Origin: an uncultured Candidatus Saccharibacteria bacterium
GTDB taxonomy: Bacteria; Patescibacteriota; Andersenbacteria; UBA10190
Length of the DNA: 64,000 bases
Assembly (NCBI GenBank): GCA_964371255.1
Contig: CAYJKV010000001.1
Span: 163,140 to 227,139, forward strand
Reading direction: 5' to 3'
Numbering within the stretch: the stretch's first letter is position 1; every line of letters begins with the position of its first letter. The notes under the pieces were generated by a model. That model was not told the DNA's origin. It worked only from the letters and a program-made list of their open reading frames with translations, and ran no database searches. Of this stretch, positions 8,506 to 64,000 are shown one piece after another. The translations under genes were made by a program, and so were the position numbers.

Positions 8506-9291
8506 ATGTTTGATTCACATGCCCACGTCGCAGATGGGAGGTTTGACGATGATCGGCTGGCCGTGACGCAAAGAGCGCGTGAAGCTGGTTTAACCGGATG
8601 GCTGGAAATAGCCAGTACAGTGTTGGGGAGTAAAGAAGCAATTGCTTTGGCGGAACGAACTGGAGGAGTGTTGGCGAGTATTGGTGTGCACCCGGAAGAA
8701 ATTGGAACGATCCAAGAGAAAGACTGGCAAATTTTGGATAACTTAGCGAGTAAGGAAAAGGTAGCAGCTATTGGTGAGGTTGGTTTAGATTTTCATCGCG
8801 ACGGCAACTATGAAAAACAGATAATCATTGTGGAAAAGTTTGTGGCCTTGGCTGTTAAGCATAAGAAACCGATTGTGTGGCATCTGAGGAGCGGCCAGGG
8901 GTTAGACGCGAACGACTTATTGCTTGATTATTTAGGCAGTCTGTCGGCGGATATAAGACCACGAGGCGTAGCTCACACTTTCAGCGGGACGGTTGAGCAA
9001 GCAGCCAGATGCGTGGAATTAGGTTTAAATATTGGCATATCCGGTATTGTGACGTTTAAGAACGCGGGGAGGCTATTAGATGTCGTGCGCACGATTGAAC
9101 TGAAACATCTGTTGATTGAGACTGATTGTCCTTATTTGGCACCGGAGCCTTGTCGGGGACAGCGTAATGAACCGGCGTACGTGAGGTTTATTGCGGAAAA
9201 AATCGCCCAATTGAAGGAAATGGATGGGGAGGAAATCGCTTTGACCACCGAGCGAAATTTTTGGAAAATGATTGGGAGAGAAGAAGTTTGA
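8506..9291 (+). CDS. tatD: TatD family metal-dependent DNase/hydrolase
   Basis: MFDSHAHV... N-terminus with the conserved His/Asp/Glu ladder of the TatD TIM-barrel (HPEE, HLRSG, AHTFSG, ETDCPYL). Confidence 0.88.
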   Translation: MFDSHAHVADGRFDDDRLAVTQRAREAGLTGWLEIASTVLGSKEAIALAERTGGVLASIGVHPEEIGTIQEKDWQILDNLASKEKVAAIGEVGLDFHRDGNYEKQIIIVEKFVALAVKHKKPIVWHLRSGQGLDANDLLLDYLGSLSADIRPRGVAHTFSGTVEQAARCVELGLNIGISGIVTFKNAGRLLDVVRTIELKHLLIETDCPYLAPEPCRGQRNEPAYVRFIAEKIAQLKEMDGEEIALTTERNFWKMIGREEV

Positions 9292-9472
9292 CTGACTGAA
9301 ACGGGAAAGAAACGCGCGTAGAAGCGTCTAGTGAGGATGTGACAAGGCTGTGACTAAATAAGTAGCCGAGGCGACTTTGGTTTAGTATAGTAGATGAATG
9401 AAGCGAACAAGATTAGAACTGGGTGATGAGACAGGAGTAAAAAGGTGGTTCAATCGGGCAGAAAAGGGAGAG

Positions 9473-10747
9473 ATGAAGCCTTTGGCAGCCCGCAGCCGTC
9501 CCATGGACTGGAACGGCTTTATCGGTCATGACAAAGTGGTTGGGCGGGGGACGGGACTGAGAAAAGCTATCGAACAAGGAACGGCCGGGTCGTTGATATT
9601 GTGGGGACCGCCGGGTGTGGGCAAGACCACCTTGGCATATATTATTGCCAAGTACATGAGAGCCAAGGCGGAAAGAATTAGTGCCGTGGCAGCCGGCGTC
9701 AAGGAACTGCGGGTGGTGATTGATCGAGCGATCGAATGGCAAAAAATTGACCAGCGGACAGTTTTGTTGGTGGACGAAATTCATCGTTTCAACAAAGCGC
9801 AGCAAGATGTCTTGCTGCCATATGTGGAGGAAGGGCTGGTCACGTTGATTGGCGCGACCACAGAGAACCCCTATTTTGAAGTTATCGCCGCGCTGGTATC
9901 CCGAGCGGAAGTAGTGCGTTTGGAACGTCTAACAGACAAGGATGTGAGCCGAATAATAGACCGAGCGCTTAGGCAAGGAGCGGAAGACGCAAAAATTGTA
10001 ATGAGCGCACCGGCCAAGAAAGCCTTAGTGACTATGGCTGGTGGGGACGCGAGACGAGCCTTAAATATTTTAGAGAGAGCGTCTTTGGTCGGACGAGGCA
10101 AAAAAATTGAACAAAAGGATATTGAGTCAGCCGCACAACAATCGGTCGTGCATTATGACAAGGGCGGTGACGCGCATTACGATACGATTTCCGCGTTCAT
10201 AAAAAGTATGCGCGGGTCAGACGTGGACGCGGCGCTGTTTTATTTGTTTAGAATGCTAATGGCTGGGGAAGATCCTAAGTTTATAATGCGCCGGATGTTT
10301 ATTTTCGCGTCGGAGGATATTGGTAATGCCGATCCCCATGCTTTGATGGTAGCGGCGGGTGCGTCACAGGCGTTGCAATGGGTGGGGCTACCGGAAGCGG
10401 AATATGCTTTGGCCCACGCGGCTTGTTATTTAGCGGCCGCACCGAAGAGTAATAAAGTGAAAGTTGCCATGGAAAGAGTTAAGCAGGACGTTGTTCGGCA
10501 TGGCAACGCGGTGCCGCCCGGGCATATAACAAATGCGCCGATTGAAGGGATGAAGAAACACGGGAAAGGAGTTAATTATTTGTATCCGCATGACTGGCCG
10601 GAGGGACTTGTTAAGCAACAATATCGGCCGGATGTGGTGCAGGGGCATGTTTATTATGAGCCGGGGACAGAAGGGTTTGAGAAGGAAGTGAAGAGGAGAG
10701 TGGATAAGGCGAGGGAAATACTTTTCATAAATCCCAATGGCCAATGA
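9473..10747 (+). CDS. rarA: Replication-associated recombination protein A (RarA/MgsA AAA+ ATPase)
   Basis: Walker A LWGPPGVGKTTLA, Walker B LLVDEIHRFNK and the MgsA C-terminal domain. The start was chosen at ATG 9473 (MKPLAARSRPMDW...), preceded by GGGAGAG. The ORF-track start at 9398 is a probable over-extension. Confidence 0.88.
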   Translation: MKPLAARSRPMDWNGFIGHDKVVGRGTGLRKAIEQGTAGSLILWGPPGVGKTTLAYIIAKYMRAKAERISAVAAGVKELRVVIDRAIEWQKIDQRTVLLVDEIHRFNKAQQDVLLPYVEEGLVTLIGATTENPYFEVIAALVSRAEVVRLERLTDKDVSRIIDRALRQGAEDAKIVMSAPAKKALVTMAGGDARRALNILERASLVGRGKKIEQKDIESAAQQSVVHYDKGGDAHYDTISAFIKSMRGSDVDAALFYLFRMLMAGEDPKFIMRRMFIFASEDIGNADPHALMVAAGASQALQWVGLPEAEYALAHAACYLAAAPKSNKVKVAMERVKQDVVRHGNAVPPGHITNAPIEGMKKHGKGVNYLYPHDWPEGLVKQQYRPDVVQGHVYYEPGTEGFEKEVKRRVDKAREILFINPNGQ

Positions 10748-10827
10748 CCAATTCCCAATCAAGTTCCAAGTCCCAAATCCCAATGACCGATCTATAACCA
10801 AATTATAAATCCTAAAACCTTAAATCC
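10741..10827 (+). repeat. G-poor C/A-rich degenerate short-unit repeat (units like AATCCCAAT / CCAATGACCAA), begins in the last codons of rarA
   Basis: ccaatgaccaattcccaatcaagttccaagtcccaaatcccaatgacc..., a strong C>G skew. Confidence 0.6.
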
Positions 10828-10848
10828 TTCCTAGGGGATCCCTTCGGG
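10828..10848 (+). promoter_or_regulatory. Conserved 3'-UTR motif TTCC(C)TA(A/G)GGGATCCCTTCGGG, copy 1 (about 80 nt after the rarA stop)
   Basis: Shares a 12 bp palindrome-like core around GGATCC plus a CCC-UUCG-GGG tetraloop hairpin with the copies at 49782 and 63294. Confidence 0.55.
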
Positions 10849-11107
10849 AGAAACAAATATAAAATAAGGGAAAATGCAAAACGACAAGCGCAAAGCAACA
10901 ACGTAAAACCTAAGACTACCAGAGGTTTTTCAAATGACTATAGCGCAGACTGGAAATAATAGATTGTTATATAAAGTCTTTGTATAGTTCTAATTAGCGT
11001 CGAAGAAGTTGACAAGTAGGTATAATTAGAGTATGATTTAGCGTTAATTTTGGACAGTACCTTTTATTTCATTGTGGTATTAGCCACAGCCGAGAGCTTT
11101 ATTTTTC

Positions 11108-11136
11108 CCCATGTCCACCTCCGGGGTGGACATGGG
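11108..11136. promoter_or_regulatory. Perfect 12 bp-arm palindrome CCCATGTCCACC-tccgg-GGTGGACATGGG preceded by a T-run, about 135 bp upstream of the atypical gene at 11272
   Basis: Read directly. A second copy is at 48664..48692. Confidence 0.6.
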
Positions 11137-17975: not shown

Positions 17976-18075
17976 AGAAATCCCAATGACCAAGCTCCAA
18001 TGACCAAATAAACTTCAATCCCCAAGGCCTCAATAAATCCTAAAACCGAAATCACAAATCTGAAATAAATAAAAA
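17976..18075 (+). repeat. Same repeat family downstream of the giant surface-protein gene
   Basis: aaatcccaatgaccaagctccaatgaccaaataaacttcaatccccaagg...aaatcctaaaaccgaaatcacaaatc. Confidence 0.6.
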
Positions 18076-18165
18076 ATTCTAAACAGGTAGAATTATAAAA
18101 AGTAGCTGCTGGGTTGCTAAAGTGTGTAAAAATGTTAAAAAGAAAATAGTTATCATTAAGAATAT

Positions 18166-18879
18166 TTGTTTATGAAAGCAGTTGTTTTAGTGGCGGGAAA
18201 AGGGACGAGGATGGCTAAGCATTATGAAGGGCCGAAGCATTTACTGCCGGTCGCCGGTAAGACGGTAGTGGAGTATGCGCTGGACAATCTACCAAAGGAA
18301 ATTGACGGTTTAGTGATGGTGGTAGGCGGGCCGCATGAAGCGAAGATTAGGGAATTTTTCGCGGCAGGTGAGTACGGGGGCAGGCCGATTGAGTTTGTGG
18401 TGCAGAAAGAGCAACTGGGGCTGGCGCATGCGTTCAAGTGCGCCGCAGATTTGGTGGAAGGCCGATGGCTGGGCATGGTCGGTGATGACATTTTTGGTCC
18501 CAACGGGATGCAAGGTTTGGTTGAGAATGAGTTATCAGTGTTGGCATCGCGAGTAGAGCATCCGGAAAACTTTGGCGTATTGGTATCGGATGAAGAGGGT
18601 TATTTGGTGCGATCGGTAGAGAAGCCGAAAGAATTTATTTCCGATCTAGTATGGAATGGAGCGATGGTTATGGACAGATCTTTTTTTGAAAGTGACGTTG
18701 AACCATCGGCGAGGGGTGAGTATGAGACGCCGGATGTATGGATGGAATTAATTAAACAGGGGAGGAAAATTAAAGTGGTGGAAGCAGATTTTTGGTTGCC
18801 GATAAACGATAAGGAACAGTTAGAAGAAGCGGAGAAAATAATAGAGGAAATCCGAAAGCCGAAACCAAAGAAATCCTAA
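18166..18879 (+). CDS. Sugar-phosphate nucleotidyltransferase (NTP_transferase family, e.g. glucose-1-phosphate thymidylyl/uridylyltransferase-like)
   Basis: N-terminal VLVAGKGTRM (GxGTR signature) and a nucleotidyltransferase fold of about 230 aa. Confidence 0.82.
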   Translation: MFMKAVVLVAGKGTRMAKHYEGPKHLLPVAGKTVVEYALDNLPKEIDGLVMVVGGPHEAKIREFFAAGEYGGRPIEFVVQKEQLGLAHAFKCAADLVEGRWLGMVGDDIFGPNGMQGLVENELSVLASRVEHPENFGVLVSDEEGYLVRSVEKPKEFISDLVWNGAMVMDRSFFESDVEPSARGEYETPDVWMELIKQGRKIKVVEADFWLPINDKEQLEEAEKIIEEIRKPKPKKS

Positions 18880-18968
18880 ACAAATATGAAACCGTAAAAG
18901 TCCAAGGAAAAAAATATAAACGATAAATCAGTGTCAACACGATTAAAAATATCAAAAACCTAAAAAGT

Positions 18969-20740: not shown

Positions 20741-20880
20741 CGAAATCCTAAATCATAAACTACGGAAATCCTAACTGACTTGATTAAATGACCAATGACC
20801 AATTCCCAATGTCCAATCAATCCGCCAGTTGGCGGACCAAACCCTAATGACCAAGAAGTTAGAAATCCGAAATCCTAAAC
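20741..20880 (+). repeat. Same repeat family in the divergent intergenic region between the NDP-sugar dehydrogenase gene and the MFS transporter gene; contains an embedded hairpin CCGCCAGTTGGCGG
   Basis: aaatcctaaatcataaac...aaatgaccaatgaccaattcccaatgtccaatcaatccgccagttggcgg...aaatccgaaatcctaaac. Confidence 0.6.
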
Positions 20881-22596: not shown

Positions 22597-23361
22597 ATGA
22601 GTGAAGTATTGGCGGTGACTAATCAAAAAGGGGGAGTAGGCAAAACGACCACCAGTATAAATTTGGGCAGTTACTTGGCGGCGGCAGGAGCTAAGGTGGC
22701 AATTATAGACTTGGACCCGCAGGCCAATGCCACATCAGGTCTGGGGATTAAGGTCACGGAGGAGACACCAACATTATACGAGGTGCTGACAGGCCAAGTG
22801 GATGCGACTAAAGCTTTGCAGGCGACCGATCATGATAATTTGAACATTATTCCGTCAAACACTAATTTGGCTGGAGCAGCGATTGAATTGATGGACAAGC
22901 CTTATCGGGAGTACAGATTGCGCCGGGCCGTAAGAGCCCTGAAGGAATATTATGATTTTATTTTAATTGATTGCCCGCCCAGTTTGGGATTATTAACGAT
23001 TAACGGTTTAGTGGCGGCAGATCGTTTGCTGATACCGGTCCAGTGTGAATTTTTTGCAGTGGAAGGCCTGAGCCAGTTGCTGGAAACAGTGGAGTTGGTC
23101 CGGGCTCACTTGAATCCCCGGCTGCAAGTATTGGGAGCGCTGCTGACTATGTATGATCGAAGAACGGCTATGGCGCGAAAAATTGTTAAGCAAGTGCGCC
23201 AGACCTTTCCGGGCCATGTGTTCGAAAGTGTCATACCGAGAAATACCGAGCTGGCGGAGGCGCCAAGTAAAGGCCGGTCTATTTTAGGTTATGCTAAGTA
23301 TTCGAGAGGGGCGAAAGCTTATGAATTTTTATCCGCTGAACTAATTAATCTATATAAATGA
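22597..23361 (+). CDS. parA: Chromosome partitioning ATPase ParA/Soj
   Basis: Deviant Walker A KGGVGKTTT with ParA-family architecture. Stop overlaps the parB start (ATGA). Confidence 0.9.
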   Translation: MSEVLAVTNQKGGVGKTTTSINLGSYLAAAGAKVAIIDLDPQANATSGLGIKVTEETPTLYEVLTGQVDATKALQATDHDNLNIIPSNTNLAGAAIELMDKPYREYRLRRAVRALKEYYDFILIDCPPSLGLLTINGLVAADRLLIPVQCEFFAVEGLSQLLETVELVRAHLNPRLQVLGALLTMYDRRTAMARKIVKQVRQTFPGHVFESVIPRNTELAEAPSKGRSILGYAKYSRGAKAYEFLSAELINLYK

Positions 23362-27999: not shown

Positions 28000-28150
28000 A
28001 AATTAAAAAAAATAGAAGGGACCGGGTGAAGTGCAATATAAATTAATCAATATTTGAATAGTATAGCGTATTGATATATGTAAATGGTATCTGGTGTCAA
28101 ATAGGAAATGAAAAAGTCAAAATCCAAATTATGAATATGTAGTTCTGAAT

Positions 28151-28182
28151 AACATTACGATATTATGTAATATCGTAATGTT
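28151..28182. promoter_or_regulatory. 12-6-12 palindrome ACATTACGATAT-TATGTA-ATATCGTAATGT, copy A, between the dprA stop and topA start
   Basis: Read directly from the sequence. Perfect 12 bp inverted arms with an asymmetric 6 bp spacer. Confidence 0.7.
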
Positions 28183-28215
28183 ATGAGAAAAGAATTGGCA
28201 TAATTTTAACCGGTT

Positions 28216-28247
28216 ATTATTACGATATTATGTAATATCATAATAAT
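28216..28247. promoter_or_regulatory. Same palindrome, copy B (variant ...ATATCATAATAAT), 65 bp from copy A, same orientation
   Basis: Core TTACGATATTATGTAATATC(A)TAA is identical apart from one position. Confidence 0.65.
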
Positions 28248-28299: not shown

Positions 28300-29175
28300 T
28301 CATTTTTTCACATATTTCATGCCGCCGAGGTTGTCGACGGCGTCGATCAATTCTAGTTCGGTTAAGGTGACTGACAGGATGGGCGAGGGTAGACGGGTGA
28401 TAGATACTAACTGATCGACATGCAGAGGGGTGGAGGATAGAGCGGCCATGACAATTTTTTGCTGGTCGGTGAGAGTGGCTGCTAAAACGTGGTTTGCAGT
28501 GGCGACGACTGGATCAATGTTAAGCAGTGCGAAAACATCTTCGGCAGTCAGTAGGGGTGTGGCGCCTTGTTGTATAAGTTGATTTGTGCCGGCTGATAAT
28601 AAGTCTGTAATATTGCCGGGGATGGCAGCAACATCTCGACCGTATTCCAGCGCGAGACGGGCGGTGATAAGCGAGCCGGAGCGGGCGGCGGCTTGAACGA
28701 CTAACGTGGCCATCGTCAGACCGGCGATGATGCGGTTGCGAGCGGGGAAATGAAATTGCAGCGGGGCTGTGCCGGCAGGAAATTCTGAAATTATCACTCC
28801 GCCGTGGTCGATTATGGCGTTGGCGAGCTTCACATGGAGTCGAGGGTAAATTGAAGCATCGTCAATACCGGAGCCTAATACCGCAATAGTTGGCGTGTTA
28901 TTAGCGAGACACAAATTGTGGGCAATAGAATCGATGCCGTAGGCTAAACCGGAAACAAGCGGCACACCGTTTTTAACTAAAGGGGTTAACAGGCGCTCGA
29001 TGGCTTGTTTGCCATAGAAAGATGATTTACGACTGCCGACGACGGCGAGTAGGGGAGAAGCATTAAGAATGGCGGCGTTGCCTCGATAAAAAAGTGGAGT
29101 TGGCGGGTCGGAAATTTCATTCAGCAGGGCGGGGTAGAGAGGACTGTCGAGGGTAAGTGTCTGGATGTCGGACAT
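28300..29175 (-). CDS. dprA: DNA processing protein DprA (Smf)
   Basis: Rossmann-like DprA core (LLAVVGSRKSSFYGKQAIERL...GLAYGIDSIAH). Sits immediately upstream of topA, the conserved smf-topA arrangement. Confidence 0.88.
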   Translation of the reverse strand: MSDIQTLTLDSPLYPALLNEISDPPTPLFYRGNAAILNASPLLAVVGSRKSSFYGKQAIERLLTPLVKNGVPLVSGLAYGIDSIAHNLCLANNTPTIAVLGSGIDDASIYPRLHVKLANAIIDHGGVIISEFPAGTAPLQFHFPARNRIIAGLTMATLVVQAAARSGSLITARLALEYGRDVAAIPGNITDLLSAGTNQLIQQGATPLLTAEDVFALLNIDPVVATANHVLAATLTDQQKIVMAALSSTPLHVDQLVSITRLPSPILSVTLTELELIDAVDNLGGMKYVKK

Positions 29176-45047: not shown

Positions 45048-45956
45048 CTAAGCAGTTTGCAAGTGAAACAGACGCTTAGCGACAATCTCGTAGTTGATGA
45101 CGCCAAAGGCAGCACCGAGAAGGCCACCGAAGATTATCACGAGTCCTGCGTCAAGAAATGAGCCGATGTAGGAATGGAGCAGGAGCAAGGATAGCAGGCC
45201 GCCGAGTGTTCCGTCGATGGCGCACAGTATGCGTTCGTGGCAGTGGACAAATTTGAAAGTAAGCCAGAGAGGGCGGAGGATACCGAAGAAACAAATGCCA
45301 GCCAATAAAACTATAGCTACTGTAGGTATGACCAGAAAAAGTCCCTCTAACAGCCAACGCAGAACGTTAAGGTAGGTTACCGGTTTTTCTTTAAATCCAC
45401 CCGCTTTCAGCAGGTAGGGACTGAGAGCCATCAGTCTGGTACGCCAGAAAGATGTTTCGACAAAATGCGCACCCAGTGCGGCCAAACCGTATATGATGGT
45501 ACAACACATTACACCATAAAAGGTGCAAAGAACTGCTGCAGCGAACCACTGCTCTGCATCCCACGAATCGGGTAATATTCTCAAGTGTAGAAGTGGAGAA
45601 AAAGTGGCTAAATCTAGCAAAATGCCGAAACATAAAAAGGGGTGGGGTTTCCTGAACCAAGCCCACATTTCGGCAAGCACGCACCCACTAACTCCTAGAA
45701 AAGTGTGCCAGCATACTGGTGCTTCCTGATAGGCTTTTCGCCAGGCTTGGGGGATGGCAGCTAGCACATCGCGCAAATCATAACAAAGATACCCAGCGGC
45801 CATACCAGCTAAAATGGCTATGCCCCATAAGTGCGGAGAGACCAAGAGAGCCAGACTGACACACAGAATACCTCCCATAAAACAAGCCACTGCAATTTTT
45901 TTTGTTTCCATTGACAAACTCCCGGGAAAAGTGAAAAGAGCTGACCGAAAAAGCAC
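45048..45956 (-). CDS. Polytopic membrane protein, Trp/Cys/His-rich, hypothetical (divergent from comEC)
   Basis: About 300 aa with 7-8 predicted TM helices and slightly elevated GC. Alternative start at 45911 (METKK). Confidence 0.55.
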   Translation of the reverse strand: MLFRSALFTFPGSLSMETKKIAVACFMGGILCVSLALLVSPHLWGIAILAGMAAGYLCYDLRDVLAAIPQAWRKAYQEAPVCWHTFLGVSGCVLAEMWAWFRKPHPFLCFGILLDLATFSPLLHLRILPDSWDAEQWFAAAVLCTFYGVMCCTIIYGLAALGAHFVETSFWRTRLMALSPYLLKAGGFKEKPVTYLNVLRWLLEGLFLVIPTVAIVLLAGICFFGILRPLWLTFKFVHCHERILCAIDGTLGGLLSLLLLHSYIGSFLDAGLVIIFGGLLGAAFGVINYEIVAKRLFHLQTA

Positions 45957-46005
45957 TTACATAGAGGTACGCTATTATTTAATAAAAATCAAGAAAGGTT
46001 TATGG

Positions 46006-47520
46006 ATGCAGATGACGAGTGCTTTGAGAGGCTTGTCTGAAGCGGAACGGATTATTTATGCTGTGTATGTGCGCAAGTTTTTGTTGTTATTAGTTATCGC
46101 GTGGGTGCTAGGGATAGCTGCTGGTGTGGCCGAGGAGGGTAGTTGGTGGTTGATGGCACTCGGAATAGGCATAATCGGAGCAGCTATAAAAAATAAAGAA
46201 CGATGGACGTTAGTAACGGCCATGATTTTATTGCTCGCGTTAGGATGGGTGGATGGATGGGGACAGGGACATAAATCGGTTGCGGCGTGTGAAAACGTTG
46301 AGAATAGGGCCGCTACCGTAGTAAATCGACCAGAAAGTTTGGAGAGACAGGTACGGTTTATCGCACAAATTGATGACTGCCGAATATTGGTGTCAGTGTC
46401 GCCGTGGCTCAGCGTCGGTCAAAATGACCAAGTGGTTATTACCGGTGGAAAAAAGCAATCGCTGGAAGAGGTAAAAGAATTCTCGGTCGGGTATGCGAAG
46501 TACTTAAGCCGGCGGGGGATCAGTGCGACCTGGTTTTTTCCGGACGTGGAAATTGTGAAAGTGAACAACTTAGGCGGTTGGTGGTCTTGGGGTAACACAC
46601 AAAATTTGTCCAATACATTTCAGGATCGAATACAGATACTCTTCGTGGAGCCGGACGCGAGTCTGGTGATGGGTATGCTGCTGGCGCAAAAAGGGACAAT
46701 CCCAAAAGAAATAACGCAGCAATTCCAGGCGACGGGCGTGAGCCACATACTGGCTATCTCCGGCATGAATATCTCGATTATTGCTGGAATTATCTATTTT
46801 TTAATCGCGCCGCTGCCGCTACGGAAATGGACGCAAACCGGACTGATGCTGACAGTACTATGGCTATACATAGTTTTTATCGGAGCGCCGGTGTCAGTGG
46901 TGCGAGCCGGGTCATTTATAACAGTGGCTATGGTGTTGCTGAGGTTAAGTAAATTAGTCAGTTTGCCTACGGCGTTGATAATAACTGTCGTAGTCACTGC
47001 GACAGCGGATCCATTAGTGCTGCTGGACGTGGGTTGGCAGTTATCGGTGGGAGCAGTAGTTGGGATTTTCTTAATATTGTTTGTTACTAAACAAACCCAA
47101 CCGCGACTCAGTAAAGGTGGGATTGGAATCTGGTTGTATAACCTTGTAATAGTATCGCTAGGCGCGTCACTGGCAACCTGGCCCTTGATTATGTATCACT
47201 TTGGAAACGTGTCCTTAGTGAGCTTGCTCGCTAATCTACTAGTAGTACCAGTAGTTTCGTTTATTTTGATTTTGGCGCCCGCCAGCATTGCTCTCTCTTG
47301 GGCATGGATGGGGGGAGGATTAATTCTGGGGGCAGTAAATCACTGGTGTATCAGCTGGCTGGTCGATATAACCGGGATGTTGTCGCAATGGCCGGGGATG
47401 TATTGGACGGAACTGGGGATACAGGCTTGGCTGGTGTGGGTATATTGGATAGGGTTGATGGGACTAATCCATTTTATATTGCGGCGGCAGAATAGATCAT
47501 GGCGGGAAGTGTGGGCGTAG
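46006..47520 (+). CDS. comEC: DNA internalisation channel ComEC/Rec2 (competence domain only)
   Basis: Competence-domain motif GVSHILAISGMNISIIAG and multiple TM helices. Start set at ATG 46006, preceded by AAAGG. Confidence 0.85.
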   Translation: MQMTSALRGLSEAERIIYAVYVRKFLLLLVIAWVLGIAAGVAEEGSWWLMALGIGIIGAAIKNKERWTLVTAMILLLALGWVDGWGQGHKSVAACENVENRAATVVNRPESLERQVRFIAQIDDCRILVSVSPWLSVGQNDQVVITGGKKQSLEEVKEFSVGYAKYLSRRGISATWFFPDVEIVKVNNLGGWWSWGNTQNLSNTFQDRIQILFVEPDASLVMGMLLAQKGTIPKEITQQFQATGVSHILAISGMNISIIAGIIYFLIAPLPLRKWTQTGLMLTVLWLYIVFIGAPVSVVRAGSFITVAMVLLRLSKLVSLPTALIITVVVTATADPLVLLDVGWQLSVGAVVGIFLILFVTKQTQPRLSKGGIGIWLYNLVIVSLGASLATWPLIMYHFGNVSLVSLLANLLVVPVVSFILILAPASIALSWAWMGGGLILGAVNHWCISWLVDITGMLSQWPGMYWTELGIQAWLVWVYWIGLMGLIHFILRRQNRSWREVWA

Positions 47521-47544: not shown

Positions 47545-48393
47545 ATGAAAACGTTATTGATCGGCCTGGCTATATTCACCTTTTTTGCTTGGGAATTACC
47601 GTCGGCGGGCACAGAACAAAAGGTGGTGTTTTTAGATGTCGGACAAGGTGATTCGATTTTAATGCAGGATGGCAGTAATCAAATATTACTGGATGGGGGC
47701 CCTGGAATGAAGGTGCTGGAGGAACTGGGAAAACAAATGAGTTGGTTCGATAGACGGATTGAGGTGGTAATACTATCACATCCGCAAGAAGATCATATGG
47801 AGGGATTGCTGCATGTCATTGACAGATATCAGGTGGGTTTGGTGGTAATACCAAAAGTGGCGACAGATACGTTGATGCAGCAGGAGTGGATAAAAAAGAT
47901 TGAAGGACACAGGGTGCCATGGCGGTTTGCTTGGGCAGGACAGAGGATCACGGCGGGGGATATTGAGTTAAATATTCTTCATCCGTTTGATGGCGAAGTT
48001 GCGGCCAAGAATGTTAATGATGCGTCAGTGGTCGCGCGGGTTGATTTTGGAAAAAAAGATACCGAAGGAAGGAGACTGTCCTTTCTTTTAACGGGGGACG
48101 CAGAGAAGAAAGTGGAGAATATGCTGATAGCGCGTACCGACCCTAGTTTACTGGATGTAGATGTGTTAAAGGCTGGTCATCATGGCAGCAAAACTTCGAC
48201 GATACCGGCGATGGTTAACGTGACGACGCCACAGGCAGCGGTTGTTTCGGTCGGGGCGGACAATAAATTCGGGCATCCGGCAATGGAGGTGTTGGATAGA
48301 TTAAAGAATATACCGGTTTGGCGGACGGACATAGACGGAGCGGTGGAGTTTTTTTGGAGTAAGGGGGAGTGGAGAGTGAGGACAGGAAATTAA
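47545..48393 (+). CDS. MBL-fold metallo-hydrolase corresponding to the ComEC C-terminal beta-lactamase domain, encoded as a separate ORF
   Basis: LDVGQGDSILMQ...HPQEDHMEGL...AGHHGSKTS metal-binding motifs. Immediately follows comEC. Confidence 0.8.
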   Translation: MKTLLIGLAIFTFFAWELPSAGTEQKVVFLDVGQGDSILMQDGSNQILLDGGPGMKVLEELGKQMSWFDRRIEVVILSHPQEDHMEGLLHVIDRYQVGLVVIPKVATDTLMQQEWIKKIEGHRVPWRFAWAGQRITAGDIELNILHPFDGEVAAKNVNDASVVARVDFGKKDTEGRRLSFLLTGDAEKKVENMLIARTDPSLLDVDVLKAGHHGSKTSTIPAMVNVTTPQAAVVSVGADNKFGHPAMEVLDRLKNIPVWRTDIDGAVEFFWSKGEWRVRTGN

Positions 48394-48450
48394 TTTTCAA
48401 TTTCTAATTTTCAATTTTCAAATAATTCTCAAGGCAACAATTTTCAAACG
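48385..48450 (+). repeat. Related T-rich variant repeat (AATTTTCAA units) downstream of the MBL-fold gene
   Basis: ttaattttcaatttctaattttcaattttcaaataattctcaaggcaacaattttcaaacg. Confidence 0.55.
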
Positions 48451-48663
48451 TGAGATTAAAACGCAAAGCGAAAAACAACAGAGAAAAACTAAAAGAAGCC
48501 AAACGCTTGCACGGAATAGTGGGTTGAGATATCAACAAGGGGTTCTTTGGGTGTGCGATCTATGGTTTGTCGTTATGACATAAGGAGCACTGCACACTAG
48601 GAGTGGGATGAGGAGGCTTGTGTCTCTATGACGTTATTCATCGTGTCCCGCTCTTTTTATTTT

Positions 48664-48692
48664 CCCATGTCCACACCTGGTGTGGACATGGG
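48664..48692. promoter_or_regulatory. Second copy of the palindrome, CCCATGTCCACA-cctgg-TGTGGACATGGG, preceded by TTTTTATTTT, just 3' of the minus-strand coiled-coil ORF
   Basis: Arms match the copy at 11108 in 11 of 12 positions, and the flanking T-run is conserved. Confidence 0.6.
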
Positions 48693-49172: not shown

Positions 49173-49757
49173 GTGATGATTGAAAGAACATTGGCGATTA
49201 TAAAACCAGATGGAATACAAAGAGGATTGATGGGAGAAATAGTCGGCCGGTTTGAGAAAGCAGGCTTGAAGATCGTGGGGATGAAATTGGTTTGGCCAGA
49301 CAAGAAACTGGTCGGAGAACACTATGCTGATGATAAAGAATATTTAACTGGGGTAGGAGAGAGGGCGCTGGCAAATGCCCGGGAAAAAGGGGTTGAGATG
49401 AAAAAGACGGCACTAGAAATTGGCCAACGTGTTCGGGAGAGCAATATGAGATACATATCGACAGGTCCCGTACTGGCTTTTGTGCTGGAAGGAAACACAG
49501 CAGTGCAGTCGGTGCGGAATATGGTCGGCGGGACGAATCCACTGACGGCGGATATAGGGACGATTCGAGGGGACTTGACTATCGATGATTTTATGCAATC
49601 GGATACCGAGAACCGTTCGGTGCGAAATCTTATGCATGCGTCAGGGAATGTGGCGGAAGCGGAACGTGAGATACCCTTATGGTTTATGGAGAGCGAGTTG
49701 TATGAGTATCAGACCGTCATGGATAAGGTGCTGCATGATCCGAGCTGGGGAGCGTAG
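49173..49757 (+). CDS. ndk: Nucleoside diphosphate kinase (long form)
   Basis: MIERTLAIIKPDGIQRGLMGEIVGRFEKAGLKIVGMK and the active-site His region. Confidence 0.88.
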   Translation: MMIERTLAIIKPDGIQRGLMGEIVGRFEKAGLKIVGMKLVWPDKKLVGEHYADDKEYLTGVGERALANAREKGVEMKKTALEIGQRVRESNMRYISTGPVLAFVLEGNTAVQSVRNMVGGTNPLTADIGTIRGDLTIDDFMQSDTENRSVRNLMHASGNVAEAEREIPLWFMESELYEYQTVMDKVLHDPSWGA

Positions 49758-49781
49758 ACAATAATTTTCAATTTCCAATTT

Positions 49782-49803
49782 TTCCCTAAGGGATCCCTTC
49801 AGG
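49782..49803 (+). promoter_or_regulatory. Conserved 3'-UTR motif, copy 2 (TTCCCTAAGGGATCCCTTCAGG), 25 nt after the ndk stop
   Basis: Read directly. Confidence 0.55.
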
Positions 49804-50002
49804 ACAATTTTCAAAGAAAAACCAAGAAGAGAACTTTCAAACACGACCTAGATAACAGAAAGCGCAAAACGAAACACGTATAGCAATAATTTAGCGTAAC
49901 AACACTTGTGTTAGAGGTGATTGTTTTGTTCGATTGACTAAAAAATCCCGGCTTGCTAGGTTGGGAATGTTAGTTCGTTCAGGGAAGGGTGGTTGGAGGG
50001 GT

Positions 50003-50064
50003 CAGGCACAGCATAGTGGAGGTAGGTAGCTTGTAGCTAGATGTTGTGCCTGGCCCGTTTTTTT
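50003..50064 (+). terminator. Hairpin (about 12 bp stem CAGGCACAGCAT / ATGTTGTGCCTG with inner stem-loop) followed by T7, ending 17 nt before the ATG of the 50081 gene
   Basis: gtcaggcacagcatagtggaggtaggtagcttgtagctagatgttgtgcctggcccgttttttta. Confidence 0.5.
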
Positions 50065-51496: not shown

Positions 51497-51744
51497 GAAA
51501 CCTGAAATCTTGAAATCCCTGCCTGCCGGCCTATCTACCGGTAGGCAGGCAGGTGAAACAAATTCAAAATTATAAACTTAATTAATTAGAAACTGCGGCC
51601 GCGTTCAAGTCAGGTAAGAACCAAGCAGTCTTCATTGACCAAGGATTTGATGGGTAGATCCTACTGCGCTTAAGCTTTGTGGGGCAGGCAAACCGACTGC
51701 TATATCTGCTGGTCGGATATTACCTGCGATTCTTTTGCCAAGAA

Positions 51745-52881: not shown

Positions 52882-52968
52882 GGGTGCGGAAGGGATGATA
52901 AGGTATTAATATAAAGAGGTTTGTTGTAGGTGTATCATAGAGCTCAATAAAGAAAAAGACCCGGTGAT

Positions 52969-53000
52969 AATATTACGATATTACATAATGTCGTAATATT
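52969..53000. promoter_or_regulatory. Same palindrome, copy C (opposite spacer orientation, one mismatch), in the tgt / yerC-like divergent promoter region
   Basis: AATATTACGATAT-TACATA-ATGTCGTAATATT, about 45 bp upstream of the regulator start codon. Confidence 0.7.
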
Positions 53001-53044: not shown

Positions 53045-53503
53045 ATGATGGGCAGATTTGATTATCGAGGATTGTCTGCCGAGAAGCGGCGCGAGTTTTT
53101 GGATAGGCTGGCTGATATAGTCGCGCACATTCGAAAAAAGGAAGAAGCACGATTTTTTCTTGAGAGACTTTTAACAGAAAGTGAAGTGGTGATGCTAATG
53201 CGCCGGTTGGAAGTGGCCGAACTGCTGCTGGACGGATTAACGTATGAAAAGATCAGGCGTAAATTGGGCGTGGGAACGTCAACGATTTATATCGTTGATA
53301 AGTGGCTGACTGAAGCAGCCTATGAATACAGAGAGATACGAGCGTATCAGAGAAGGATAGGCAAAGATGCCAAGCGAGCCAGAGAAAGAGACAGTAAACG
53401 CGCAAAGGGGCATGTGGAATCGACGATGCCTGGAACATTAAGGCAGATGATTCGTCATGATGCACGATTTATCCTGTTTCGTTTGCTGTTGGGCAATGTT
53501 TAG
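53045..53503 (+). CDS. TrpR-like YerC/YecD family DNA-binding regulator
   Basis: LTESEVVMLMRRLEVAELLLDGLTYEKIRRKLGVGTSTIYIV is the YerC/YecD TrpR-like HTH. The gene is flanked on both sides by the 12-6-12 palindrome. Confidence 0.8.
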   Translation: MMGRFDYRGLSAEKRREFLDRLADIVAHIRKKEEARFFLERLLTESEVVMLMRRLEVAELLLDGLTYEKIRRKLGVGTSTIYIVDKWLTEAAYEYREIRAYQRRIGKDAKRARERDSKRAKGHVESTMPGTLRQMIRHDARFILFRLLLGNV

Positions 53504-53572
53504 ATCGGAACCGAAGGAGTGTGACGCGGTCAGGAGATTTATATAAGTGGATTGATGGGGGGTGATGATTTA

Positions 53573-53604
53573 CATTACGATATTATGTAATATCGTAATA
53601 TGTG
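53573..53604. promoter_or_regulatory. Same palindrome, copy D (exact match to copy A), 70 bp downstream of the yerC-like regulator stop
   Basis: ACATTACGATATTATGTAATATCGTAATAT. Confidence 0.7.
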
Positions 53605-62805: not shown

Positions 62806-63282
62806 ATGCCACGAAAGAAAAGAGTATATAAGAATAAGAAATTTTTAAAACCAGACCCCAAGTTCGGTAATTTGATGCTATCAAGGTTTATTAATCAGAT
62901 TATGCGCCGAGGCAAGAAGTCGATTGCGCAGAAAGTAGTATATGGGGCACTGGATATTGTGTCAGAAAAAACAAAGGATGATCCATTGATGGTGTTTGAC
63001 GCGGCGATCAGAAACGTAGCGCCCGTGTTAGAGGTAAAGGGCAAGCGAATTGGCGGAGCTAATTATCAGATAGCGCAAGAAGTGAGAGGAGATAGGCGTG
63101 AGACCCTAGCGATGCGCTGGCTTAAGGAGGCGGCTCGAACAAGAAGTGGCAAAGCGATGGCGGAAAAGTTGGCGGCGGAGCTGATTGACGCATCGAACAA
63201 AGAAGGCGGCGCGATGAAACGACGGGAAGAAGTGCACCGCATGGCAGAAGCAAATCGAGCATTTTCTCACTTTGCCCGATAA
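62806..63282 (+). CDS. rpsG: 30S ribosomal protein S7
   Basis: Canonical S7 sequence ([28 protein letters not shown]). Confidence 0.95.
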
Positions 63283-63293
63283 TAACTTTCAAT

Positions 63294-63316
63294 TCTTCCC
63301 TAAGGGATCCCTTCGG
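63294..63316 (+). promoter_or_regulatory. Conserved 3'-UTR motif, copy 3 (TTCCCTAAGGGATCCCTTCGGGG), 12 nt after the rpsG stop, in the rpsG-fusA spacer
   Basis: Read directly. Confidence 0.55.
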
Positions 63317-63365
63317 GGCAAGGCTCAATTTTCAAATAAATTTCAATAACAAATTTTTAAACGAC

Positions 63366-64000
63366 GTGGCTGACAAAAAACAATTTCCTCAAGTAGCAAT
63401 CGATAAGGTAAGAAACTTTGGTATTATTGCGCATATTGATGCCGGGAAGACGACCGTGTCGGAACGCGTTTTATTTTATACCGGACTGACGCATAAGATC
63501 GGGGAAGTGCATGAGGGAGCAGCGGTTATGGACTGGATGGATCAGGAGAGAGAGCGGGGCATTACTATTACCTCGGCGGCGACGACGGCTTTCTGGAAAG
63601 ACCACCGCTTAAATCTAATTGATACGCCGGGGCACGTAGATTTTACTATTGAAGTGGAACGCAGCTTGCGGGTGTTGGATGGCGCGGTCGTAGTATTTGA
63701 CGGAGTAGCCGGAGTAGAACCACAGAGTGAAACTGTCTGGAGACAAGCTGACAAATATAAAGTGCCGCGGATGTGTTTCATTAATAAATTAGACCGCACC
63801 GGCGCTGACTTTTGGAAAGCAGTTGCTTCTATCCATGAGCGGCTGACTAAAAATACGGTCGTGATGACGCTGCCGATTGGGACGGAGGAAAAGTTTGATG
63901 GATTAGTTGATCTGATAACGGAAAAAGCCTGGTATTTTATGGGTGAGCGAGGCGAGAAGATCGAGACCAAGGAAGTACCAGAAGAGATGAAAGAAGAAGT
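63366..64000 (+). CDS. fusA: Elongation factor G, N-terminal part (continues beyond window)
   Basis: GTG start, then [40 protein letters not shown]...DTPGHVDF (G1-G3 motifs). Missing from the ORF track because it has no in-window stop. Confidence 0.9.

Follow-up and report, generated by a model that had tools for sequence, protein, structure and literature searches.

We analyzed a window of 64,000 nucleotides, the whole stretch considered here, from contig CAYJKV010000001.1 of an uncultured Candidatus Saccharibacteria bacterium that GTDB places among the Andersenbacteria of the Patescibacteriota. The homologues of its S7 protein likewise assign the window to Candidatus Andersenbacteria (Patescibacteria), and its sequence belongs to a metagenome contig of 223 kb. 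Our subject is a 22-nucleotide motif found 25 nt past the stop codon of its ndk gene. Since the same 22 bases are found between genes in unrelated phyla, this motif looks like a tiny repeat of the type of the repetitive extragenic palindromes (REPs), possibly mobile, rather than a locus-specific regulatory signal, as far as sequence can tell. Scans of sequenced genomes demonstrate that several bacterial phyla harbor this same sequence. Alignments of empty and filled sites establish the 22-mer as a discrete module that, in A/T-rich and G-poor spacers, is either wholly there or wholly missing, with base precision, and the comparison with relatives and strains establishes that it turns over quickly between close relatives. 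We give about even weight to the fuller proposal that this motif belongs to a set of dispersed double-hairpin palindromes of 22 nt, similar to REPs and to the double-hairpin elements (DHEs) of fungal mitochondria, and probably mobile.

A search of the whole window for the 22-mer with up to three mismatches returned three matches, all on the + strand, at 10827-10848 (three mismatches), 49782-49803 (one) and 63296-63317 (none), and none was found in 100 dinucleotide-preserving shuffles. This agrees with an earlier note on the same DNA, which had reported three related copies after rarA, ndk and rpsG, all on the coding strand. The natural register of the element runs from TCCC to GGGA, and the coordinates of the copies have been reset accordingly. 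Copy 1, TTCCTAGGGGATCCCTTCGGGA, lies at 10828-10849 (+ strand), 80 nt past the stop codon of the MgsA/RarA gene (9398-10747). Copy 2, TCCCTAAGGGATCCCTTCAGGA, lies at 49783-49804 (+ strand), 25 nt past the stop of the NDK gene (49173-49757). Copy 3, TCCCTAAGGGATCCCTTCGGGG, occupies 63297-63318 (+ strand), 14 nt past the stop of rpsG, the gene of ribosomal protein S7 (62806-63282), and 47 nt ahead of the fusA start at 63366. The three upstream genes were named from their Pfam matches. The earlier note had placed copy 2 correctly and copies 1 and 3 with a shift of 1-2 nt; its exact 20-mer shrinks to the 11 nt of GGGATCCCTTC, the stretch common to all three copies. Likewise, the perfect 12-bp palindrome AAGGGATCCCTT that it described is present in copies 2 and 3 but not in copy 1, and its UUCG reading (CCCTTCGGG) fits copies 1 and 3 but not copy 2. 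It also held that copies inside genes would speak against its proposal; neither a relaxed pattern nor a search with up to five mismatches revealed any further copy in the window, genic or otherwise.

Beyond the window, a fourth copy, TCCCTAAGGGATCCCTTTGGGA, directly follows rpsJ on the same contig, 10 kb past the window end, and a variant copy, CCCCTATGGGGTCCCATAGGGA, lies ~130 nt downstream of it, while the 8.6 kb upstream of the window contain no copy. This amounts to five copies in ~83 kb (about one per 17 kb), all single and all on the + strand, which is here both the coding strand of the upstream genes and the strongly G-rich strand. Because each copy in this genome sits on the coding strand just past a stop codon, it should be transcribed into a 3' untranslated region (UTR) or an intercistronic RNA. 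Several assemblers, applied to many samples, recovered the same sites independently.

The 22-mer (59% GC) is the unit TCCCTAAGGGA+TCCCTTCGGGA, that is, two abutting 11-nt mini-palindromes, TCCC-TAA-GGGA and TCCC-TTC-GGGA. In the minimum free energy structure computed with ViennaRNA, the 22-mer forms just one hairpin, UCCC.AAGG-GAUC-CCUU.GGGA, of -9.5 kcal/mol, an energy not better than that of shuffled sequences; copies folded with their flanks do no better than shuffles either (z from -0.9 to +0.8). We then compared both models in 56 family members, none of which had been selected through the search patterns. The two-hairpin model (pairs 1:11 to 4:8 and 12:22 to 15:19) accounts for 14 compensatory double changes with 56 broken pairs, against 2 compensatory changes and 110 broken pairs for the single long hairpin. 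The compensatory changes fall at pairs 2:10, 3:9, 13:21 and 14:20, as illustrated by the hairpins TACC-GAA-GGTA, TGCC-GAA-GGCA and TGGC-GAA-GCCA. Covariation thus favors two 4-bp hairpins over one long hairpin, and the two mini-hairpins of the earlier note find support there. The UUCG tetraloop which that note attributed to the second one is not a conserved feature, since TTTG replaces TTCG in about one third of the family members; together with the near invariance of A22, this means that a 4-bp stem capped by a UUC triloop is the better description of hairpin 2. Among the four canonical copies we count five substitutions, two of them in loops and two leading to G-U pairs on the + strand only (C2T and A22G); in copy 2, G19A unpairs the last base pair of hairpin 2. 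A dyad-symmetric protein site on each 11-mer would give the same covariation, so the latter does not separate RNA, single-stranded DNA and duplex readings. In the window, generic pairs of neighboring 4-bp hairpins show no enrichment over simulations (11 versus 10.7); it is the specific sequence that matters, not the bare architecture.

The modular nature of the 22-mer is best seen at sites that lack it. The spacer 48386-48452, which follows a metallo-beta-lactamase-fold gene, is a paralogue of the post-ndk spacer, and the gap in their alignment exactly covers the 22-mer. At this empty site (48386-48434, + strand), the flanks of copy 2 are contiguous at the junction 48411|48412, hence a clean difference of presence or absence. 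Another slot, AAATCC|GAAACAAAT, occurs in three states: empty, filled with the 22-mer or filled with a different GC hairpin. It is empty at 18871-18885 (+ strand), at the end of a nucleotidyl-transferase gene, where AAATCC is directly followed by TAAACAAAT, and it is also uninterrupted at position 15296 of L192. It holds exactly the 22-mer at copy 1, and the 22-mer plus one extra C at copy 4. After the PMT_2 gene (51519-51553, + strand), the slot is occupied by the other GC hairpin, CTGCCTGCC...GGCAGGCAGG (-27.8 kcal/mol), and this second hairpin family fills it again at L192 15042-15061; under the strict definition CTGCCTGCC...GGCAGGCAG, this hairpin is not common to different phyla.

An orthologous comparison is offered by a relative whose S7 protein is 98% identical. 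Its after-rpsJ spacer aligns at 82% identity, with a clean 22-nt gap opposite the variant hairpin, and at the position of copy 4 it displays a CTGCC hairpin instead of the 22-mer. The same position can also be viewed as a hairpin swap, one species carrying a member of the CTGCCTGCC...GGCAGGCAGG family and the other the 22-mer. When AAATCC|22-mer|GAAACAAAT and AATTTT|22-mer|CAATTTT are set against empty sites, neither a target-site duplication nor flanking direct repeats can be found.

The rpsG-fusA spacer that hosts copy 3 (63283-63365, + strand, 83 nt) gives a measure of the turnover. Relatives with S7 identities of 98, 97, 90, 86 and 84% have spacers of 55, 54, 46, 8 and 42 nt, respectively, none of which contains the motif or resembles that of the window, and the loci of the 84-97% relatives, about 20 kb each, are devoid of GGGATCCC. 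A similar difference is seen with the co-occurring strain L166 (ERZ13692955), whose PMT_2 protein and ndk 3' end are identical to those of the window. Its ndk-PMT_2 spacer (L166 472-638) is 167 nt long against 323 nt in the window, contains neither the G-poor tract nor the 22-mer, and diverges from base 3 of the ndk stop codon onward; the terminator-like hairpin found at 49998-50064 in the window is missing from L166 as well. In every other strain sampled, the three filled sites and the empty one match the window exactly. The earlier note had argued that a sequence conserved at unrelated loci must have a function. The likeness of the copies stems from the 22-mer being a repeated module gained or lost precisely, and copies are missing from orthologous spacers of relatives and from one strain; what holds of that interpretation is therefore the mini-hairpins and the transcription of the copies, not the inference of function.

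To appreciate how far the motif extends, one genome per species (185,579 species, 596 Gb) was scanned with the pattern TYCCTARGGGATCCCTTCRGG. This gave 34 loci in about 15 genomes, where a uniform base composition predicts ~2 chance matches to the pattern and ~0.3 to the exact 21-mer. The hosts are Saccharibacteria, Parcubacteria and other Patescibacteria, a metagenome-assembled genome (MAG) labeled Chitinophagaceae, other Bacteroidota, Ignavibacteria, Balneolaceae and Desantisbacteria, and no match came from Proteobacteria, Firmicutes or Actinobacteria. No fewer than 31 of the 34 loci are one and the same exact 21-mer, followed by A in nearly all cases. A scan of metagenomes with both loop dinucleotides left free returned at least 120 loci, on more than 100 contigs. 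The loop dinucleotides are nevertheless far from random among the metagenome matches listed (AA/TC 29, AA/TT 15, AG/TC 7, AG/TT 5 and AT/TT 5), and the fully symmetric AA/TA form, TCCCTAAGGGATCCCTTAGGGA, is absent from the ~134 matches listed. Transitions from the master sequence, namely C18T, within a CpG, and A7G, make up the most frequent variants. Viral contigs searched with the degenerate pattern gave no match, and blastn against PLSDB plasmids and GenBank phages gave chance partial matches only (17 identical nt for plasmids, 20/22 for one virus record). At the gathering threshold, Rfam recognizes just two tRNAs in the window, and a single tRNA in nine motif loci at E<=1. The 22-mer and its sub-strings, in DNA or RNA spelling and on both strands, were not found in the full text of the searchable literature, and our search for literature on REPs or terminators in Patescibacteria returned nothing relevant.

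From genome to genome, the flanks of the motif are unrelated, although T-T-R is weakly preferred 5' of it and Y 3' of it. Family members are nearly always intergenic and in either orientation: the loci in other genomes comprise 20 copies antisense to tandem genes, 11 in sense with them, 7 between divergent genes and 4 between convergent ones. The strand of the motif bears no relation to local GC skew, nor to a G-poor flank beyond a few lineages (C exceeds G in 39 flanks and G exceeds C in 32). Cases that seem to lie inside an open reading frame (ORF) are mostly edge artefacts of over-extended frames; three copies do lie in long open frames. One is an exact 22-mer, in frame, in an ORF for a PorV-like outer-membrane beta-barrel from a Desantisbacteria MAG (L034 7150-7171; also L102 and L158), a frame of 338 codons in which the copy falls within the Pfam-matched region. 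Another, inside an asparagine synthase (L083), is probably a chance match, and the last lies in a long open frame upstream of a LysE domain (L116). We also considered that the motif could be the apex of a longer, genome-specific hairpin. This is true for L002, L012, L047 and L068 and statistically weak overall, the flanks displaying only a slight excess of complementarity (mean stem 4.1 versus 3.7 in controls, with z ~3.5 at two positions only). At some Bacteroidota loci such as L012, the 22-mer is in the loop of a longer stem that is followed by a T-run.

Some contigs carry the motif within larger repeats. The MAG labeled Chitinophagaceae (CAYXEE01) has 16 motif loci (L004, L007-L011, L017, L021-L028 and L032), all inside a longer repeat, and many of its contigs end within that repeat. 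The latter is a MITE-like composite (MITE, miniature inverted-repeat transposable element) of ~190 nt bounded by GGTCATGCTGAGC...GCTCAGGATGACC, the copies of which differ in how many UUCG-type mini-hairpins they contain. The closest named homologues of a purM gene on one of these contigs belong to Ignavibacteriales/Bacteroidota (80-82% identity), so this contig does not come from a bacterium of the candidate phyla radiation. On the - strand of L132 (2500-4682), a repeat unit of ~100 nt made of three hairpins, TTCGCGCGTGCGAA, GACGGCTGGTTCCGTC and the 22-mer, is present in four copies 590-850 nt apart, each 44-74 nt past a small + strand ORF and antisense to it; its substitutions, two or three events, are too few to tell the folding strand. 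Finally, L153 (for example at 8988-9050 and 10606-10660) and L157 contain tandem TCCCTATGGGA / TCCCATAGGGA mini-hairpins with the same 11-mer architecture as the motif. Both are AT-rich (31% GC) and have many tRNAs, group I introns and a weak match to large-subunit rRNA, a composition and gene content from which we take them to be probably mitochondrial.

In the window, the three copies are embedded in repeats, as the earlier note had it: all lie inside G-poor A/C/T repeat tracts. The tract of copy 1 (10729-10935, + strand), with its heptamer-like CCCAAT, GACCAAT and AAATCC, starts within the last six rarA codons, the TGA stop being part of CCAATGACC. That of copy 2, of the TTTCAAT type, follows ndk (49758-49890, + strand). 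Such tracts stand out on the G-rich + strand, where 40-nt windows are G-poor in 16 cases and C-poor in 186. Further ones are present at 17978-18085, 20750-20880, 48382-48510 and 51497-51596, and most of these tracts, built from the heptamer-like CCCAAT, GACCAAT, TTTCAAT and AAATCC, begin at or after the stops of + strand genes. Their repeats resemble the short tandemly repeated repetitive (STRR) heptamers of cyanobacteria, TGACCAA being the reverse complement of STRR2. No copy of the 22-mer is followed by a U-tract, the downstream sequence being A-rich, and a terminator consensus scan calls none of them. Some 200 nt past copy 2, a terminator-like hairpin with U7 is predicted at 49998-50064 (+ strand; -36.2 kcal/mol, z -4.8), and this hairpin, not the 22-mer, is likely the ndk terminator. 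A terminator-like hairpin with a U-tract, AAAGUCGCGCGAGGGUGCGGCUUUUU, is also predicted after rpsJ (z -3.5) and is kept, with changes, in the relative (z -5.5). Since such hairpins lie downstream of the ndk and rpsJ copies, the 22-mer is not the terminator; the element is rather in the 3' UTR and, at rpsG-fusA, between two cistrons.

How could such a short sequence disperse? The element would spread as DNA, likely through a hairpin formed in single-stranded DNA that could be handled by a hairpin-specific nuclease of HUH or RAYT type (RAYT, REP-associated tyrosine transposase) or else be copied by template switching. Spread between lineages would be horizontal, and the element would persist where it does no harm, just past stop codons and between cistrons. 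In this genome, it would be transcribed together with rarA, ndk, rpsG and rpsJ and could fold into two stacked 4-bp stem-loops located upstream of the true terminators. By analogy with REPs, a side effect might then be to oppose a barrier to 3'-5' exonucleases and so favor the upstream cistron, for instance S7 over EF-G. Such a role in stabilizing mRNA is one that we infer, and the function of the element in this window may be nil.

Several observations weigh against a mobile element. The sites are fixed in the sampled population, L166 excepted, so no ongoing movement has been caught, and the comparison of empty with filled sites fits either gain or precise loss. No transposase, HUH or RAYT gene was found by Pfam among the 29 window ORFs scanned, and the inverted motif pair of L068 encloses a membrane-anchored hypothetical protein and no transposase. 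The five copies all point the same way, in sense with their genes and on the G-rich strand, a uniformity not required of a purely neutral element, and their number is modest, about five in 83 kb. Moreover, an identity that extends across phyla and includes the loops would also be expected of a conserved recognition site. Tentatively, and with less conviction than for a dispersed repeat as such, we propose a self-contained element that would insert in A/T-rich spacers without duplication and would have been exchanged between Patescibacteria and the Bacteroidota/Ignavibacteria group, or otherwise the recognition site of an undescribed shared protein.

Other explanations have to be considered. 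The main reading of the earlier note corresponds to a selected cis-acting RNA element, in which the twin hairpin would be bound by a conserved RNA-binding protein or RNase, or would block 3' exonucleases, and thereby set the 3' end or the stability of the upstream mRNA. All five copies of the source genome are sense and 14-80 nt past stops, two of the five substitutions of the canonical copies fall in loops and two yield G-U pairs restricted to the + strand, the sequence is kept across phyla with its loops, and the frequent presence of some GC hairpin at orthologous and paralogous slots suggests that a hairpin is wanted there. We nonetheless find this explanation unlikely, for in other genomes antisense copies outnumber sense ones (20 versus 11 in tandem contexts) and 7 copies lie between divergent genes. 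Close relatives lack the element in their orthologous spacers, as does one strain; it also has terminator-like hairpins downstream, folds no better than shuffles (z -0.9 to +0.8), has no Rfam match, and varies (C18T in CpG, A7G) in a way that looks like decay from a master copy. The motif could also be a duplex DNA site, a reading with which its orientation agrees, as outside this genome it does not follow that of the flanking genes. The protein would be a dimer or tetramer conserved in Patescibacteria and the Bacteroidota group, for example a recombinase, a protein of the nucleoid or one related to restriction-modification, and would bind the palindrome, whose GGGATCCC core is accompanied by TCCC/GGGA half-sites spaced by one helical turn. 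parS is a binding site conserved across phyla and could serve as a model here. The perfect 12-bp palindrome, which includes GGATCC, the 11-bp period with tandem 11-mer arrays in other contigs, the identity across phyla and the dyad symmetry that the compensatory changes keep within each 11-mer all accord with such a site. It still appears quite improbable to us: there is no tie to promoters or to a particular gene set, the motif is absent at orthologous sites, the fully symmetric TCCCTAAGGGATCCCTTAGGGA is not among the ~134 matches listed, the window counts of GGATCC (12) and GATC (226 versus ~235 expected) are not unusual, and no candidate protein was identified.

The tracts themselves raise the question of Rho-dependent termination, with G-poor tracts as rut sites (Rho utilization) and the small hairpin as the limit of trimming by 3' exonucleases. 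G-poor tracts are indeed rare on the + strand (16 windows versus 186 C-poor), several lie just past + strand stops, and the hairpin lies inside them. The rpsG-fusA tract is, however, just 83 nt long and gives way at once to fusA, the motif is not tied to a G-poor strand in other lineages (C>G 39, G>C 32), and hairpins resembling intrinsic terminators follow ndk and rpsJ. Rho may be plausible for some tracts, but it leaves the 22-mer itself unexplained, and we hold it to be very improbable as an account of the motif. Scarcely any credit can be given to an intrinsic terminator, a DNA uptake sequence (DUS), a chance repeat or an assembly artefact, and all four were rejected. The position past stop codons does recall terminators and the DUS pairs of Neisseria, and the source genome encodes ComEC and DprA. 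Yet the stems have 4 bp only and no copy has a U-tract after it; a density of ~1 per 17 kb in a sequence common to several phyla is the opposite of a self-recognition signal; chance yields no copy in shuffles; and an artefact would not be assembled independently at the same sites, in many samples and by several assemblers.

A parallel can be drawn with several families of small repeats. As with REPs and their assemblies, the bacterial interspersed mosaic elements (BIMEs) and the REP doublets forming hairpins (REPINs), the 22-mer is a short imperfect palindrome (22 nt versus 20-40 nt for REPs), extragenic, found past stops or inside operons, multicopy, transcribed with the upstream gene and without target-site duplication. 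REPs can block 3' exonucleases, as does the malE-malF REP. Unlike them, the 22-mer has no GTAG/GTGG head at its 5' end and starts with TCCC, its copies are single and not in inverted pairs, and it is built of two abutting 4-bp hairpins, not of one long stem. Its density (~5 copies in 83 kb) contrasts with the hundreds of REPs per genome, and it is common to several phyla, unlike REP families, each of which is confined to one species or genus. RAYT is an IS200/IS605-like Y1 transposase, typically flanked by REPs; none was found among the 29 window ORFs scanned or between the inverted pair of L068, the portion of the genome covered being ~83 kb.

MITEs, Correia/NEMIS, RUP, BOX, ERIC, Rickettsia palindromic elements and SMAG share with the 22-mer their non-autonomous, dispersed, mostly intergenic, hairpin-forming and co-transcribed character, and the rare insertion of Rickettsia palindromic elements into ORFs has one counterpart here, in the PorV-like ORF. 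The 22-mer is nevertheless some 5-10 times shorter and has no terminal inverted repeats around a unique sequence, no target-site duplication and no cognate insertion sequence. Intrinsic terminators resemble it as GC hairpins past a stop but have stems of at least 5 bp, versus 4 bp and no U-tract in the window copies. DUS and uptake signal sequences (USS) occur about once per kb and are lineage-specific, versus once per 17 kb and across phyla for the 22-mer.

Compared by architecture and description, mitochondrial DHEs seem to be the nearest described analogue. These potentially mobile, intergenic elements can be identical between species (PMC10085805), and neither the enzyme nor the function is known for the DHEs and repetitive hairpin-forming elements of Allomyces, Schizosaccharomyces and sponge mitochondria (PMC10085805, PMC2800124). 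In S. octosporus, they were located by a scan for 35-bp windows of more than 75% GC. The likeness lies in the two adjacent GC-rich hairpins within AT-rich intergenic DNA, with the two-hairpin covariation found here, in the presence or absence between relatives, in the identical copies across species and in the occasional copies in genes; it extends to the organelle-like contigs L153 and L157, with their TCCCTATGGGA tandems of the same 11-mer architecture. The 22-mer differs in being shorter, less GC-rich and located in an Andersenbacteria chromosome, not in a mitochondrion.

The window displays other features. A palindrome of 26-34 nt, ATTACGATATTATGTAATATCGTAAT, has four copies, two of which (52964-52997 and 53566-53599) flank a Trp-repressor-like gene (53045-53503) and two (28146-28179 and 28211-28244) lie downstream of dprA (28300-29175, - strand); these palindromes look like putative operator sites of the Trp-repressor-like regulator. 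A hairpin with a 14-bp stem, CCCATGTCCAC...GTGGACATGGG, with a T-run ahead of it on the + strand, occurs at 11097-11136 and 48653-48692, the former inside a listed ORF for which the gene calls of other assemblies start downstream (~11272). GC skew is strongly positive, from +0.12 to +0.33 per 2 kb, throughout the 64 kb, including the parts with genes on the - strand. Besides dprA, the window also encodes parA (22597-23361) and comEC (45814-47520). An ORF at 66-410 consists of 18-nt periodic GGNGAN/GGGCTG repeats, rich in Gly, Asp and Leu, with only a weak, sub-threshold TrAA12-like Pfam match.

The element described here is real, amounts to more than a local repeat and is best placed among repeats of the REP and DHE kind, with an unexpected distribution across phyla. 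The same double hairpin in bacteria of the candidate phyla radiation and in the Bacteroidota group departs from the usual picture of REPs as private to a species or genus and tied to a transposase. In practical terms, the element breaks short-read assemblies, many copies of one MAG being at contig ends, and in Patescibacteria it marks fast-evolving 3' UTRs and intercistronic spacers. As a recognition site, it would point to a conserved partner that awaits discovery. Should it prove mobile, it would represent the bacterial counterpart of the DHEs of mitochondria, would be close to the smallest unit of mobile DNA known, would provide a link to those unexplained elements, and would imply an undescribed hairpin-specific insertion activity or mechanism of copying, through which very short hairpin DNA would travel between distant bacteria.

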